A stretch of DNA of 64,000 nucleotides, from positions 64,001-128,000 of the IMG/VR virus record IMGVR_UViG_3300007511_000004. One strand, given 5' to 3'. Within the stretch, counting starts at the first letter, position 1, and each line of letters begins with the position of its first letter. The stretch is from a virus. Both the position numbers and the translations under genes were made by a program. Below the pieces are notes generated by a model, which saw nothing but the letters and a program-made list of their open reading frames with translations, ran no database searches and had not been told where the DNA came from. This document shows positions 30,990 through 39,169 of this stretch, piece after piece.

Positions 30990-31828
30990 AACGGATTATT
31001 ATTGTCGGTCACGGCTTTGTTGGGAAGGCAGTAGATTACGGGTTTACGAATCCACAGGTAGAGAAGATCATAATTGATCCGAAATATGGTACAGATCTTT
31101 CCGACCTAAGCAATCTTATTGAAACAGACGCAATATTTGTCTGCTTACCTACCCCCATGGATAAGGATGGATCGATCGATAGCGAAATCCTTGAATCGAC
31201 ATTGACCCGTCTTAAGGGTCGGATCACTGGTCTTGATAGACCTAAGGTAATTGTTAAATCAACCGTGACTCCCGACGTGCTCAAGCGGGTCTACTTCCGA
31301 GGCTTAGTTTATAATCCGGAATTCCTGACGGAGCGATCTGCAAATGAACAATTCATCAATCCTACTATGCACATTTTAGGTGGCAGACGCGAAGATACTG
31401 AAGTGGTAGAGAAGCTAATTAATGAATATTCTCTTTGTAGCCCCGCACCCGTTTACCATATGTCTATGTCAGAGGCGTCATTTGTTAAATATGGCATCAA
31501 CGCCTTCCTTGCACTTAAGGTCCTTTTCTTCAATCAGTTGTATGATGTCGTGAATGACGATGATGATAGTAATTTCGCACGCGTCATAAAAGCCATAGGT
31601 TCTGATCCGCGGATCGGCCACAGTCACACAAAGGTGCCGGGTTTTGATGGTAAACAAGGATTCGGTGGTGCATGTTTTCCCAAGGACATTTCTGCATTAA
31701 ATACCTTCTCAGAGAGGTTTACAATCCTCGAAGAATGTGTTACAATAAACAATAACTATCGTAAGAACTATGTATTAGACGATAGAGAGAAATCACAAAA
31801 TATTTCATACAGGGAAACCAATAAATGA
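30986..31828 (+). CDS. ugd: UDP-glucose 6-dehydrogenase-like
   Basis: GHGFVG, CLPTP, KSTV, NPEFL, GFGGACFPKD. Confidence 0.9.
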   Translation: MKRIIIVGHGFVGKAVDYGFTNPQVEKIIIDPKYGTDLSDLSNLIETDAIFVCLPTPMDKDGSIDSEILESTLTRLKGRITGLDRPKVIVKSTVTPDVLKRVYFRGLVYNPEFLTERSANEQFINPTMHILGGRREDTEVVEKLINEYSLCSPAPVYHMSMSEASFVKYGINAFLALKVLFFNQLYDVVNDDDDSNFARVIKAIGSDPRIGHSHTKVPGFDGKQGFGGACFPKDISALNTFSERFTILEECVTINNNYRKNYVLDDREKSQNISYRETNK

Positions 31829-32736
31829 GTATTATGCAAAAGTTAAAGAAGAATAGTAGAGTTAAGTCCACCTCTATTCTATCCGAATCCAAATTCTTTA
31901 ATGAAAAGGACATGATTACAACTGATGTTCCGATGATCAACGTCGCGTTATCAGGTGCAGTTGATGGTGGCCTATCATCAGGTCTTACGGTCCTTGCTGG
32001 TCCATCTAAGCACTTTAAAACTTCATTTGCTTTGTTAATGGCATCTGCATACCTGAAAAAATACGATGATGCGGTTATCCTATTCTACGATTCAGAATTC
32101 GGTTCGCCCCAATCTTACTTTGAACAGTTTGATATTGATACATCCCGAGTACTCCATACGCCAATTACTAACGTCGAGGAACTCAAATTTGATATGATCC
32201 ATCAGCTCGAAAGTCTCGAGCGAGGGGATAAGGTTGTTGTTGTCATTGACTCGATAGGCAACCTCGCATCTAAGAAGGAACTAGATGATGCTCTGAGTGA
32301 GAAATCAGTAGCAGATATGAGCCGCGCAAAAGCTCTTAAGGGGCTATTCCGAATGGCAACCCCTTATCTAACCATGAAGAACATTCCGATGCTTGCGATT
32401 AACCACACGTATCAAACCCTAGAATTATTTAGCAAAGCGGTAGTATCCGGTGGTTGTGTTGTCGAAGGAACTAAGATTCAAACGCAACGTGGTCTAATTG
32501 AAATTCAAGATGTGCGTGAAGATGACATTATCATTACCCAATACGGCGATAAAGAAGTCAAAGCGTTATGGAATCCAGATACACTTGAAGAAGGCAATCC
32601 TGAGTGTTATGAGATTGAATTTGAAGATGGGTACAAGGTAACCTGTTCAGATAAACACAAGTTCATCGTAAATGGGGAATGGGTTGCTGCTAAAGACTTG
32701 GTAGAAGATATGGATTGTGAAACCTTGAAATCTTAA
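31825..32736 (+). CDS. uvsX: UvsX recombinase N-extein (aa 1-210) fused to the N-half of a split intein (93 aa)
   Basis: AGPSKHFKT, YDSEFG, IDSIGNLAS, ADMSRAK, NHTY, VVSGG then CVVEGTKI (intein block A) and TCSDKHKF (block B), then stop. Confidence 0.93.
   Translation: MSIMQKLKKNSRVKSTSILSESKFFNEKDMITTDVPMINVALSGAVDGGLSSGLTVLAGPSKHFKTSFALLMASAYLKKYDDAVILFYDSEFGSPQSYFEQFDIDTSRVLHTPITNVEELKFDMIHQLESLERGDKVVVVIDSIGNLASKKELDDALSEKSVADMSRAKALKGLFRMATPYLTMKNIPMLAINHTYQTLELFSKAVVSGGCVVEGTKIQTQRGLIEIQDVREDDIIITQYGDKEVKALWNPDTLEEGNPECYEIEFEDGYKVTCSDKHKFIVNGEWVAAKDLVEDMDCETLKS
32455..32736 (+). mobile_element. Split intein, N-fragment (IntN)
   Basis: Starts with Cys right after SGG; block A and block B motifs; ends at a stop codon with no HN terminus. 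Confidence 0.9.
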
Positions 32737-32740
32737 TTTG

Positions 32741-32748
32741 TATAAATA
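32741..32748 (+). promoter_or_regulatory. Late promoter for the homing endonuclease
   Basis: TATAAATA immediately after the IntN stop. Confidence 0.75.
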
Positions 32749-32784: not shown

Positions 32785-33615
32785 ATGAATTACAAATTAC
32801 ATTACGATAGATTAATAAGCAATGCAAGGTTGCGATTAAACGTGGACCAGTATACGGAAAAGCACCATATTATACCTAAGTGTATGGGTGGTGGTGATAC
32901 CCCTGATAATCTGGTTAGATTAACAGCCAAGGAGCATTTCGTTGCACATCACCTACTATGGAAAGAATACCGAACACCTGAATTGGCTCATGCCTGGTTT
33001 ATGATGCTTCGGTGTGACCCTAACCAGAAAAGAGAATTTACAGCCAAACAGCATGAGGCTGCAACAATCGCGCATGTTGAAGTTCTGAGAAAAACTATGG
33101 TTGGTTCGGGTAATCATTTTTATGGAAGAAAGCATACTGAAGCGGCTAAGGCTAAAATCAGTAGAGCCAATACAGGTAAGGCTCATACCCAAGAGTTTAG
33201 AGATGCATACTCCAAGAGATTCAAAGGTATACCTAAGACCCCAGAACATCGAGCTAAGATAGGTCGTACCGGACTTTCTATGTATCAGAACATAGAAACT
33301 GGTGAAATTGTAAGAGTAGCTAAAGGGACCTTAGACGAAACCTTGTGGGTTAACCCTAGGAAATTGAAGCCAGAAGCCCGACGCAAATGCACTTACTGTG
33401 ATTTTATATCCACAGAATCCAATCTAAAGATGTGGCATGATGGTAATTGTCGGTGGAAAGATACTGGAATATATGTTAAGCCATCAAGTATAAGAACCAC
33501 TAATAGGAAACGAATACCAGTTACAATAGACGGAGTACAATACAAATCGATTAACGCGGCCGCGAAGGCATTAGGAGTGAGTAAATATGAAATCAAAAAA
33601 CTGGCTGCCATTTGA
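32785..33615 (+). CDS. HNH homing endonuclease with NUMOD3/NUMOD1-like DNA-binding modules
   Basis: EKHHIIPKCMGG...NLVRLTAKEHFVAH; GNHFYGRKHTEAAKAKIS; IDGVQYKSINAAAKALG. Confidence 0.92.
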   Translation: MNYKLHYDRLISNARLRLNVDQYTEKHHIIPKCMGGGDTPDNLVRLTAKEHFVAHHLLWKEYRTPELAHAWFMMLRCDPNQKREFTAKQHEAATIAHVEVLRKTMVGSGNHFYGRKHTEAAKAKISRANTGKAHTQEFRDAYSKRFKGIPKTPEHRAKIGRTGLSMYQNIETGEIVRVAKGTLDETLWVNPRKLKPEARRKCTYCDFISTESNLKMWHDGNCRWKDTGIYVKPSSIRTTNRKRIPVTIDGVQYKSINAAAKALGVSKYEIKKLAAI

Positions 33616-33763
33616 GTCATTGGATAATGAACAATATATCCGTTACTTAGAACGGGCTGAAATGTTTCATGAAAAAGATTTACATACCGATAAAACTGTG
33701 ATACAATTAGCTAATGTATTATATGAAAAGGAGATGGCTAAAAATGAAAGTAAAATCAATTAA
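33587..33763 (+). CDS. 58-aa hypothetical protein between HNH gene and IntC
   Basis: AGGAG RBS at 33573; MKSKNWLPFESLDNEQYIRYLERAEMFHEKDLHTDKTVIQLANVLYEKEMAKNESKIN*; overlaps both neighbours. Confidence 0.6.
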   Translation: MKSKNWLPFESLDNEQYIRYLERAEMFHEKDLHTDKTVIQLANVLYEKEMAKNESKIN

Positions 33764-33866
33764 TAATGTAGGTCGTAAACCTGTTTACGATCTTTCTGTT
33801 AATAGTAATAATTACGATGAACAGCAATACGTGCTTGAAAATGGTGTAGTAACACATAACACGGGT
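33744..33866 (+). CDS. uvsX: Split intein C-fragment (39 aa) plus the first two C-extein residues TG; exon 1 of uvsX-C
   Basis: AAGGAG RBS; MKVKSINNVGRKPVYDLSVNSNNYDEQQYVLENGVVTHN/TG contains block F (VYDLSV) and block G (THN) with +1 Thr. Confidence 0.92.
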
Positions 33867-34110
33867 AAATAAGTGCCCCTTAATATGGTAACATATTTCG
33901 AAAACTCCTCTAATTGCTGGGAACTCCTACGGGACAATCAGCAGCCAAGACCGAAAGGTAAGGTTCAACGACTAGTCGAAAGACGTACACTCAAGTGAGT
34001 GGAAATGGGGAGCAACCTAATTAGGTTGAAGATATAGTCTGATCTATATGGTAACATATAGCTGGGTAGAGTCCCGGGGTAAGATTAACGACCTTATCTG
34101 AACATAAATG
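33867..34110 (+). mobile_element. Group I intron (IA2-like, ORF-less, 244 nt) in uvsX-C
   Basis: 5' exon ends in U; P1 GGGU/GCCC; P AAUUGCUGGGAA; Q AAUCAGCAGC; R GUUCAACGACUA; S AAGAUAUAGUC; P3 CUCCUC/GGGGAG; P7.1 and P7.2 hairpins; terminal G; removal restores TG-IYYSASNIW. Confidence 0.93.
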
Positions 34111-34524
34111 ATTTACTACTCGGCCTCCAATATCTGGATCCTGGGACGACAGCAAGATAAACAAGGTACTGAAATAAAAGGATATCATTTTGTCATTAAT
34201 GTCGAAAAATCACGATACGTCAAAGAGAAATCAAAGATACCGATCTCAGTTAGTTGGGAAGGTGGGGTTCAGCGTTGGTCTGGTCTCCTTGAAGTTGCTC
34301 TTGCGGGTAATTATGTTGCAAAGCCGTCTAATGGATGGTACCAATATGTTGACCAAGAAACTGGGGAGCTTGTTGGAACAAAATGTCGAGAAAAGGAAAC
34401 GCTCAATGAAAGCTTCTGGACGCCAATCCTAGAAAAGACTGATTTTAAAGAATTCATTCGAAAGCAATATCAGATTGGTCATACAGCAATCGTTGAAATG
34501 GATAAGATTGTGGTAGAGGGATGA
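34111..34524 (+). CDS. uvsX: UvsX C-extein, exon 2 (137 aa)
   Basis: IYYSASNIWILGRQQDK, VEKSRYVKEKSKIP, KPSNGWY. Confidence 0.92.
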   Translation: MYYSASNIWILGRQQDKQGTEIKGYHFVINVEKSRYVKEKSKIPISVSWEGGVQRWSGLLEVALAGNYVAKPSNGWYQYVDQETGELVGTKCREKETLNESFWTPILEKTDFKEFIRKQYQIGHTAIVEMDKIVVEG

Positions 34525-37335: not shown

Positions 37336-37818
37336 ATGAAGATAGATTTACGGAACGTGGTATCCTTTGCTCTTACTGGTACAGTAGTAGCTCTAGGATC
37401 CCTTGCCGCCCAAGATAGAATGGCTTCGGCCGCCACTGAAAGAAATTGTTTGGCTATGAACGTCTATCACGAAGCACGTGGTGAAAGCGTGATTGGTCAG
37501 ATTGCCGTAGCCCAAGTGGTTATGAATCGGGTGGATCACAATTATTTTCCTGATACAGTATGTGATGTAGTTTATCAAGATCATCAATTCTCTTGGACTC
37601 AGGATAATATTAGCGATACTACTAGTGATACTTTTGCTTGGAATCTTGCCAAGGATATTGCTATTACCGTATACGCGCGAGAAGAGGATGATCCTACATC
37701 CGGCGCCCTTTTCTACCATGCGGATTATATTGATACCCCACACTGGGCTAAACAAATGGAAACCACACTCCGTGAAGAGACTCATATCTTCTATTCATGG
37801 GATGGGGTTTGGGATTAA
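37336..37818 (+). CDS. SleB-like cell wall hydrolase (Hydrolase_2)
   Basis: N-terminal hydrophobic segment, CLAMNVYHEARGE, VVMNRV, QFSW, GALFYH, HIFY. Confidence 0.9.
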   Translation: MKIDLRNVVSFALTGTVVALGSLAAQDRMASAATERNCLAMNVYHEARGESVIGQIAVAQVVMNRVDHNYFPDTVCDVVYQDHQFSWTQDNISDTTSDTFAWNLAKDIAITVYAREEDDPTSGALFYHADYIDTPHWAKQMETTLREETHIFYSWDGVWD

Positions 37819-37836
37819 AATTAATAAGGACATAAA

Positions 37837-38421
37837 ATGAAAATGCTTCCGAAGATTCTAGTAGTTGGTCATGGCCGACATGGTAAAGATAGCGTGGCTG
37901 AGATCCTCCAAATGTTCTATGGGATGACCTTTAGAGGATCAAGTGAGTTTTGTGCTGAGACTGTATGCTTTCCCGCAATGAAGGCCGAATATGGTTATAA
38001 AGATTATATGGAGTGTTTTGATGATCGCCATAATCATCGATCGGAGTGGTATGATCTTATCTCGCAATATTGTGCTGAAGATCCAACCCGGCTAGGTCGT
38101 GAAATCTTTAAGGTATCGGATGTCTACTGCGGACTTCGGAATAAAAGAGAATTCCATGCACTGAAAAATGCAGGAGTATTTGATATTGCGCTATGGGTAG
38201 ATCGATCCGATCATCTACCACCAGAAGATAGGGCGAGTAATACTATTGAACCTTGGATGGCAGATTTTGTCATTGATAATAATGGCTCCAGGGATGATCT
38301 AACCCTTGCAGTGAAACAACTTATGGATAACCTATTGGGTCGAAATAGTCCCGAAGTATCTAATATGTCACATCACCAAGAATTTGCAACTGAAAATATC
38401 ATTAACTTGGATAATATCTAA
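37837..38421 (+). CDS. Deoxynucleoside monophosphate kinase-like
   Basis: VGHGRHGKD P-loop, GLRNKRE, DFVIDNNG. Confidence 0.65.
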   Translation: MKMLPKILVVGHGRHGKDSVAEILQMFYGMTFRGSSEFCAETVCFPAMKAEYGYKDYMECFDDRHNHRSEWYDLISQYCAEDPTRLGREIFKVSDVYCGLRNKREFHALKNAGVFDIALWVDRSDHLPPEDRASNTIEPWMADFVIDNNGSRDDLTLAVKQLMDNLLGRNSPEVSNMSHHQEFATENIINLDNI

Positions 38422-38428
38422 ATCCGTC

Positions 38429-38436
38429 TATAAATA
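38429..38436 (+). promoter_or_regulatory. Late promoter upstream of the tmRNA
   Basis: TATAAATA. Confidence 0.7.
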
Positions 38437-38441
38437 TTTCG

Positions 38442-38760
38442 TAAACGTTGAAGCAACGTAGACACATACTGGACCTCGGGGCAGTGCCGAGCGACTCCAC
38501 CATAAGCGCCCAGTTGGTTCCGGGTCTTAATCTCTATGAAGCACGTAAGGAAGTAGCTACCGGATCGTGTGGAGGGAACTGGCCGTTTTTGATGGGGTCG
38601 AAATTTAGGATCGACAGGTGTGAAAGTGAAGTGGAGTTTACCGGCTGAGTCGCGTAATAGACTTACTAAACTAAATGCAAACGTAAATGCAAAACCAGAG
38701 ATCCGCCTAGCGGCTTAATCTCTTGCGGTATGGGCTCCACCGTATCATCAAACGGACCCA
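38442..38760 (+). ncRNA. ssrA: Circularly permuted two-piece tmRNA, alphaproteobacterial type; tag ANVNAKPEIRLAA
   Basis: Acceptor piece with T-arm CTCGG-GGCAGTG-CCGAG and CGACTCCACCA (CCA 38500-38502); coding piece starts GGGGTCG (38594), giving a G3-U pair; tag frame 38677-38718 ending LAA*; outer ends approximate. Confidence 0.92.
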
Positions 38761-38803
38761 CTAAAATCTTAGAAAGCTTTTCATTAATCAAAGGATATAC
38801 AAA

Positions 38804-39169
38804 ATGAAAACCCTCGCTCTTGCAACCGCGCTTTCCGGCGCGCTCCTTGCGTCTTCGGCTAATGCCGGTGAAATTGGTAATACTGGCATCTCGCTGGGCG
38901 GTACTCTCGATACTAACTACACTACTGGTGAAAATGTCTTTGCAGTAGATTTCATCCCTCGTGCTCAGTTTTCAAACTGGGGCATCCTATTCGGCGCTCA
39001 AACTACTCTTGACGTAATGGGGCTAAACGATGGTGATATCTTTAAGGGTATTGACCTTGATGCATCTTATGATATTGGTACTACAGGTCTGAAGGCCTAT
39101 GGTAAAATCGGTACGGATTCAGATTTCGTATTCGGTAATGCTAAGATCGGTGTATCATTCGCATTCTAA
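38804..39169 (+). CDS. Small outer-membrane beta-barrel/porin-like protein
   Basis: Signal peptide ending ANA, alternating beta strands, C-terminal IGVSFAF. Confidence 0.7.
   Translation: MKTLALATALSGALLASSANAGEIGNTGISLGGTLDTNYTTGENVFAVDFIPRAQFSNWGILFGAQTTLDVMGLNDGDIFKGIDLDASYDIGTTGLKAYGKIGTDSDFVFGNAKIGVSFAF

Follow-up and report, generated by a model that had tools for sequence, protein, structure and literature searches.

A group I intron without an endonuclease two codons from a split-intein junction in uvsX of an uncultured marine T4-like phage

Some genes, bnrdE and bnrdF of SPbeta being an example, carry both introns and inteins. The occurrence of both kinds of element at conserved sites of a gene is a general pattern (Swithers et al. 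2009, PMC2814812), and convergence of introns, inteins and endonucleases on conserved sites is held to be a general rule (PMC2814812, PMC2988022). In T4, the free-standing HNH endonuclease MobE, encoded nearby, mobilises the nrdB group I intron in trans (Wilson and Edgell 2009, PMC2790892). In collaborative homing, an ORF-less intron is paired with a free-standing endonuclease that targets its site, as with psbA and F-CphI in cyanophage S-PM2 (PMC2988022, PMC3984707). Fractured genes, in which a free-standing endonuclease gene lies between the halves of a split intein, have also been described (Dassa et al. 2009, PMC2677866). Finally, group I introns are known from recA genes, as cited in PMC2677866 for Bacillus anthracis recA and for recA of phage 0305phi8-36, the latter with a Vsr-like endonuclease. 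Here we describe a phage uvsX gene in which a split intein, a homing endonuclease gene and a group I intron adjoin one another.

The uvsX locus and its split intein

The DNA analysed here (the window, 64,000 nt) covers bases 64001-128000 of an IMG/VR virus record that is complete, 146.6 kb long and has terminal repeats; its source is an uncultured marine T4-like phage. Phage C48C1 (Kyanoviridae), with an uninterrupted uvsX, is the closest cultured relative at the locus. All features described below lie on the plus strand. The N-extein of UvsX (31825-32454; amino acids 1-210, ending ...VVSGG) was identified by a Pfam RecA match and by alignment to C48C1 UvsX, and is 77-85% identical in amino acid sequence to the N-terminal part of UvsX in 79 uninterrupted relatives. 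Fused to it is an N-intein (IntN) of 93 amino acids plus a stop codon (32455-32736), with weak Pfam Hint and Intein_splicing matches. A free-standing HNH/NUMOD homing endonuclease gene (32785-33615) occupies the space between the intein halves; its product matches the homing endonuclease family phrog_655 (E 3e-50) and Pfam NUMOD3 above the cut-off, with HNH, NUMOD1 and I-TevI DNA-binding domain matches below their cut-offs. The C-intein (IntC; 33744-33860), 39 amino acids reading ...VYDLSV...VVTHN, has its own ATG, preceded by GGAG about 10 nt upstream, and matches the C-terminal block of Pfam Intein_splicing below the cut-off.

The two halves bear the marks of a split intein, namely CVVEG... 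(Cys1), SDKH (block B), VYDLSV (block F) and VVTHN|T (His-Asn with a +1 Thr), and the site at which they are inserted is continuous in uninterrupted UvsX homologs. On these marks, the uvsX halves are predicted to be trans-spliced at the protein level. The intein is also widespread at this position: homologous N-inteins occur at the identical uvsX site in 43 IMG/VR loci and 25 GenBank phage records, and IntC homologs lie directly 5' of the C-extein in 43 IMG/VR loci. Approximately 18 cultured T4-like phages combine the uvsX split intein with an endonuclease gene (Pm5461, PM2, HY03, TG1, PspYZU05, Thanatos-1, and others); in Proteus phage Pm5461 (KP890823) the intein occupies the identical uvsX site as in the window. 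GenBank annotation of these loci gives two RecA-like proteins and a homing endonuclease only, and no description of a uvsX split intein was found in the literature searched. In nine of the loci the gap between IntN and IntC is shorter than about 130 nt and is free of an endonuclease gene; such loci have either a contiguous mini-intein or a split form of the same uvsX intein that lacks the endonuclease.

A further ORF of 58 codons, taken from the ORF list (orf58, 33587-33763), overlaps the end of the HNH gene and the start of IntC. It has no Pfam or PHROGs family match, though it is kept in a divergent uvsX lineage described below (L188; 38% amino acid identity, E 8e-10) and partly in two other loci (L087 and L099), and may be a part of the mobile cassette or be translationally coupled to IntC.

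Several other features were observed in and around the locus. Two promoter-like sites of nearly the same sequence (TTTACA and TACAAT spaced by 17 nt, with an upstream TG), at 31718-31746 and 33679-33707, precede the uvsX N-part and the IntC/C-part gene, respectively, as if the cassette supplied a second promoter for the downstream half of uvsX; a scan of the locus for sigma-70 promoters and terminators was overall not above chance. A T4 late-promoter-like TATAAATA lies at 32741-32748, after the IntN stop and directly 5' of the HNH gene, an arrangement of control elements known from fractured genes and from endonuclease genes of T4. Farther downstream, at 38403-38762, the phage encodes a permuted (two-piece) tmRNA (Rfam tmRNA_permuted 84.3 bits, alpha_tmRNA 66.6 bits).

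A group I intron beside the intein junction

A complete, ORF-less group I intron of 244 nt lies at 33867-34110. The sequence-only reading of this DNA had proposed an ORF-less intron of IA2 type with a full core and a terminal G, and a covariance-model search, one of the checks that it had named, bears this out: Rfam RF00028 matches at 33857-34061 over the full model (1-253) with 103.8 bits (E 7.7e-26) against a gathering score of 50 bits, and this is the sole RF00028 match in the 146.6-kb genome. The bounds first given, 33861-34116, contained the intron together with 6 nt of exon on either side, the 5' portion being a Thr-Gly micro-exon and the 3' portion the start of exon 2. Ligation of 33866 to 34111 brings the exons back into frame and yields VVSGG-TG-IYYSASNIW, which aligns without gaps to the uninterrupted UvsX of C48C1 (IVSGGTGIYYSADNIW). 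Exon 2, which encodes the remaining C-extein from IYYSAS... to the stop codon (34111-34524), is supported by the same alignment and by Pfam T4_UVSX_C (E 6.5e-13).

The intron begins 251 nt downstream of the end of the HNH gene and, as had been noted from the sequence, only 6 nt 3' of the split-intein insertion site. The two junctions are separated by the micro-exon ACGGGT (33861-33866), the codons for Thr+1 and Gly+2 of the C-extein, of which GGGU forms the 5' strand of P1. That helix has 4 bp (GGGU/GCCC) with a U.G pair at the splice site (U33866.G33875), and the terminal G of the intron is 34110. In addition to P1 and P7 (GACUA/UAGUC), the helices P2, P3, P4, P5, P6, P6a, P7.1 (33975-33984), P7.2 (33988-34001), P8, P9, P9.1 and P9.2 could be read from the sequence, with P7.1 and P7.2 both conserved or covarying. 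P10 is likewise present, as 4 bp inside the intron (AAAU/AUUU) rather than the 5 bp originally counted, since a fifth pair would use U33866 of exon 1. The sequence common to P2 and P9 was confirmed, with ATATGGTAACATAT occurring at 33883-33896 in P2 and again at 34046-34059 in P9, as was the lack of an internal gene; the largest ORF inside the intron is 41 amino acids and leaves no room for an endonuclease.

The helices, those of the conserved core P3-P8 with its P3/P7 pseudoknot included, hold up in an alignment of the window intron with ten relatives (11 members, 72 pairs). Because the relatives are located in other genes, this covariation test applies to helices other than P1 and P10. Cells were paired in 91.7% of cases, compared with 34-44% when the partners were slid, both-sided changes affected 35 of the 72 pairs, and the observed values were reached by none of 500 shuffles. 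Covariation was found in P2, P3, P5, P6a, P8, P9 and P9.2, while P4 and P7 were invariant. Plain minimum-free-energy folding was weakly better than shuffles (z = -2.5) and missed the pseudoknot, and is not counted as evidence. By blastn, the intron core is approximately 76% identical to the introns of T-even nrdB, which we take to belong to subgroup IA2. This relatedness and the presence of P7.1 and P7.2 fit an assignment to that subgroup, such that the intron is best called IA2-like, and it is presumably self-splicing.

Relatives of the intron were found well beyond uvsX. A 23-mer spanning P7-P7.1-P7.2 retrieved 58 viral stretches, the best of them approximately 80-82% identical; none lies in uvsX, and the immediate donor of the intron was not found among them. 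An exact 17-mer over the 5' junction matched no other IMG/VR record. The closest relatives in cultured phages are unannotated, ORF-less introns in Acinetobacter phage YMC13/03/R2096 and Vibrio phage D181, each just downstream of a free-standing HNH or homing endonuclease gene; the former precedes the large terminase gene.

Exchange of the intron among intein-bearing alleles

We surveyed uvsX in the best 80 of at least 595 IMG/VR loci, those closest in the C-extein, and supplemented this with exact-word scans. The gene is continuous in 79 of these 80 nearest loci. The exception is L004, which matches the window at 99.7% identity over 8.6 kb, with approximately 0.3% of sites differing outside the tract described next, and has IntN, a 100% identical HNH gene, orf58 and IntC, with the intron absent. 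At the junction, the two alleles differ by a precise 244-nt indel and by five synonymous changes at 33848, 33851, 33860, 33863 and 33866 (-19, -16, -7, -4 and -1 from the insertion site). All five fall within the last 19 nt of the 5' flank, that is, the C-intein end and the Thr-Gly codons, and define a co-conversion tract (33848-33866); across the 309 nt 3' of the insertion site there are zero differences. The changes at 33863 and 33866 create the GGGU required for P1.

As an alternative origin of the tract we considered patchy conversion by a donor without the intein, given that the N-extein of such an allele ends in GTAGTATCCGGTGGT, similar to the end of IntC. This was rejected on three grounds: the 33860 T>C change is at odds with it, the bases between the changes show no conversion, and an exact match that bears IntC is available in L188. 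Elsewhere in the two genomes, further tight clusters of differences between the window and L004, at 37401-37428 and 38880-38997, suggest frequent short recombination patches between co-circulating relatives.

Contigs from four marine metagenome runs could be placed on the locus. In three runs of one study, a contig exactly matching the intron-plus form coexists with an intron-less joint, at depths of 11.9 and 9.1, respectively, in one of them; a fourth run, from a second study, contains the intron-plus form. The intron-less joint bears the L004-type letters TACAGGA, and it therefore represents a DNA allele rather than spliced RNA of the window allele. Furthermore, in one intron-less contig of 2 kb, orf58 and IntC are joined directly to exon 2. 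The wild population is thus polymorphic for the presence and absence of the intron. Among RNA runs, none was found to contain the locus, and next to none of its words occurred in two runs of one study that are labelled as metatranscriptomes.

A metagenome scan with an intron-only 22-mer revealed a second intron-bearing lineage, L188/L189, with a divergent uvsX (63% amino acid identity to the window in the C-extein, 72% in IntN, and 78% in IntC). The order of elements is the same as in the window: IntN, endonuclease, orf58, IntC, Thr-Gly, intron, and exon 2. The L188 intron lies at the same site and is 86% identical to that of the window, compared with 68% for exon-2 DNA; in P3, P7.2 and P8 the substitutions compensate one another. 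The two sequences are 100% identical over a stretch that starts 30 nt before the intron and extends 38 nt into it, and L188 has the window variant at all five tract positions. This identity could stem partly from selection for P1 and its upstream context rather than from recent transfer. The L188 endonuclease (L188:189-1064) shares with that of the window a C-terminal region of 149 amino acids, the DNA-binding part, at 54% identity, while its N-terminal nuclease module is a different one, assigned to phrog_7504, another homing-endonuclease family, rather than HNH. No Pfam family matched the L188 endonuclease; by eye its N-terminus may be GIY-YIG-like. In sequence, the pair looks like a swap of nuclease heads on a common binding module.

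One metagenome yielded two other intein-bearing alleles in which homologous group I introns, approximately 360 nt long, lie upstream of the intein site, at -6 nt in L114 (3639-3994) and at -29 nt in L110 (1077-1437). Both score 77-80 bits with Rfam and give joined products in frame. Their 5' exons both end in AUGGG(G)U, a hint that introns may have moved between similar sites close to each other. The region of uvsX that encodes SGG-TG is, in short, a hot spot for selfish elements, in line with the rule on conserved sites mentioned above.

We consider it likely that the intron in the window is an endonuclease-less passenger of the nrdB type and of IA2 kind, a selfish element that is exchanged together with its 5' flank among intein-bearing uvsX alleles. 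The L188 5' flank has exactly the five variants that separate the window from L004, and this, together with the polymorphism for the intron itself, argues that intron and flank have been exchanged by recombination. The exchange would proceed by homologous recombination or gene conversion and involve the intron with some 19-30 nt of 5' flank, which codes for the C-intein. In the simplest reading, the window allele would be an L004-like backbone that received the intron and 5' flank from an IntC-bearing donor; we judge such a gain in the window lineage to be about twice as probable as a loss in L004. In the reverse direction, conversion by an intron-less IntC allele may have removed the intron from L004. 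In either direction, intron presence is exchanged by recombination among intein-bearing alleles. Expression of UvsX from the window allele would then take two steps, with RNA self-splicing joining the IntC-Thr-Gly exon to exon 2 and protein trans-splicing subsequently uniting both UvsX halves.

The passage of the intron into an empty uvsX allele would be a different matter. The 6 nt between the two elements offer too little homology for a crossover, so the repair of a break in an empty allele would have to copy the whole cassette. Such a transfer would rely on N-extein homology upstream and on exon-2 homology downstream, and the block copied would consist of the intein, the HNH gene and the intron, which would thus home in trans by hitchhiking on a break made by the endonuclease. 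Co-mobility driven by the endonuclease is plausible in this setting. Within intein-bearing alleles, on the other hand, L004 encodes the identical HNH protein, and the enzyme is therefore not an obvious driver of intron entry; general phage recombination during co-infection may be enough for the intron to spread.

Alternative readings of the intron and its neighbours

The sequence-only reading had gone further and proposed strict collaborative homing, in which one HNH target spans the intein and intron sites, both insertions protect their carrier, and the enzyme drives the spread of the intron. We regard this as unlikely. What stands is the forced joint transfer into empty alleles that the 6-nt spacing implies, and the finding that all +6 introns in our survey are in uvsX alleles with the intein, which belong to two divergent lineages (the window and L188/L189). 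The relatedness of the endonucleases of these lineages, with unlike heads on a common C-terminal region, is also in keeping with the proposal, as are the position of the closest intron relatives beside free-standing endonuclease genes and the additional introns at -6 and -29. The conversion tract lies entirely on the 5' side (-1 to -19 or beyond) and would fit a cut upstream of the insertion site, which is where I-TevI-type enzymes cut (PMC2988022); such a one-sided tract is compatible with an HNH cut near the intron site and is not diagnostic of one. Other observations speak against the proposal. L004 and the metagenome haplotypes have an identical HNH gene beside an uninterrupted intron site, in the case of L004 within a 99.7% identical genome, and intron-plus and intron-less forms with 100% identical HNH coexist in the same water samples. 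The intron thus appears not to be needed for HNH self-immunity, and the evidence leans away from its being a protection of the HNH target, unless the enzyme tolerates or ignores its own allele. Moreover, most alleles with intein and endonuclease are free of the intron, including about 40 other IMG/VR loci and about 18 cultured phages; an intron after IntC was not found in the 43 IMG/VR or the 25 GenBank intein loci. A distribution of the intron independent of the intein had been named as grounds against joint movement, and such independence was found in part: the intron segregates independently among intein-bearing alleles.

A more integrated arrangement can also be envisaged, in which intron, intein and endonuclease form a three-layer unit under assembly. 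The C-terminal module of the endonuclease would read C-extein DNA across +6, breaks would have seeded the introns at -29, -6 and +6, and the unspliced IntC-TGK product would couple RNA splicing to recombinase yield. We hold this picture as a whole to be distinctly improbable.

Coupling of this last kind had been suggested from the sequence in the form of a switch, whereby IntC-TGK from unspliced mRNA would trans-splice with UvsX-N-IntN into a dead 213-aa product and splicing of the intron would gate the supply of active UvsX. The predicted reading is real, as the unspliced message runs ...VVTHN-T-G-K-stop (ACG GGT AAA TAA), identically in L188; IntC retains His-Asn and the +1 Thr, and splicing of IntC-TGK is possible on chemical grounds. 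In T4, intron splicing depends on translation and on the growth state of the host, according to the account of Sandegren and Sjoberg (2007) given in PMC3984707. Early in-frame stops are, however, a general trait of phage group I introns, with a presumed role in aiding folding (PMC3984707). The L114 intron, whose first codon is TAA, and the L110 intron have one as well, and both lie upstream of the intein, where no decoy product is possible. The conserved K-stop itself sits in a tract that is identical for other reasons. Furthermore, phages with and without the intron coexist at similar depth and about 40 intein lineages lack it; given this natural polymorphism, the intron appears dispensable in nature. 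The switch thus finds no support in these comparisons and is, in our assessment, highly improbable.

It is barely credible that the intron is a decaying, non-splicing relic in a phage that does without full-length UvsX or uses separate fragments: the last bases of the intron are an ATG in frame with exon 2 (ORF 34108-34524), which makes a stand-alone C-fragment formally possible, but no Shine-Dalgarno sequence precedes this ATG, the introns of this family end in a conserved ...AUAAAUG, the core is complete with compensatory differences in L188, the intron allele stands at about half frequency in wild populations, and uvsX is a core gene of T4-like phages.

Relation to known homing and splicing systems

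Each ingredient of the locus is already known: the IA2 intron from phages, the split intein from fractured genes, and the HNH gene as a free-standing element. Their combination is unusual. One essential recombinase would need both RNA splicing and protein trans-splicing at positions two codons apart, and a phage recombination protein would play host to three selfish elements whose spread depends on recombination. The metagenomes, in addition, catch a live polymorphism for intron presence and absence, whose conversion tract could be mapped and extends into the intein; for the movement of an endonuclease-less intron, natural evidence as direct as this is rare. With four allele states available in nature (empty, intein only, intein plus intron, and introns at other offsets), the locus is suited to the study of trans and collaborative homing and of how close together two splicing elements can sit.

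The nearest parallel is T4 nrdB with MobE. In both cases a T4-like genome has an IA2-type phage intron without a working endonuclease close to a free-standing HNH gene, the intron sequences are related, and mobility via co-conversion is to be expected. Unlike in nrdB, the endonuclease gene of the window lies inside the split intein of the same gene, uvsX, with the intron 6 nt from the intein junction. Homing in trans has been demonstrated for T4 nrdB and is proposed for uvsX. The locus further resembles psbA and F-CphI of S-PM2 in pairing an ORF-less intron with a separate endonuclease gene at one locus in a cyanophage-like relative of T4. In the collaborative-homing model, however, the intron interrupts the target of the enzyme and so protects its carrier, whereas here a sister genome has the enzyme and no intron; any protection from HNH that the window requires would probably come from the intein insertion or from something else.

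In its layout, the locus matches the fractured genes of marine T4-like phages, with N-extein-IntN, a late-promoter-like box, an endonuclease gene, and IntC-C-extein in succession. The set described in 2009 does not count uvsX among the fractured genes, mentioning it only as a neighbour of gp41 loci, and none of its loci is described with a group I intron beside the intein junction (PMC2677866). The recA introns share with the window the interruption of a RecA-family recombinase gene by a group I intron, and differ in lying at another site, in having an endonuclease ORF of their own now or once, and in lacking an intein. More generally, the locus follows the pattern described by Swithers et al., in that both kinds of selfish splicing element come together at the codons that are best conserved in genes for replication and repair. 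It departs from that pattern in the extreme spacing of two codons, in the split nature of the intein, and in a live polymorphism with a conversion tract.
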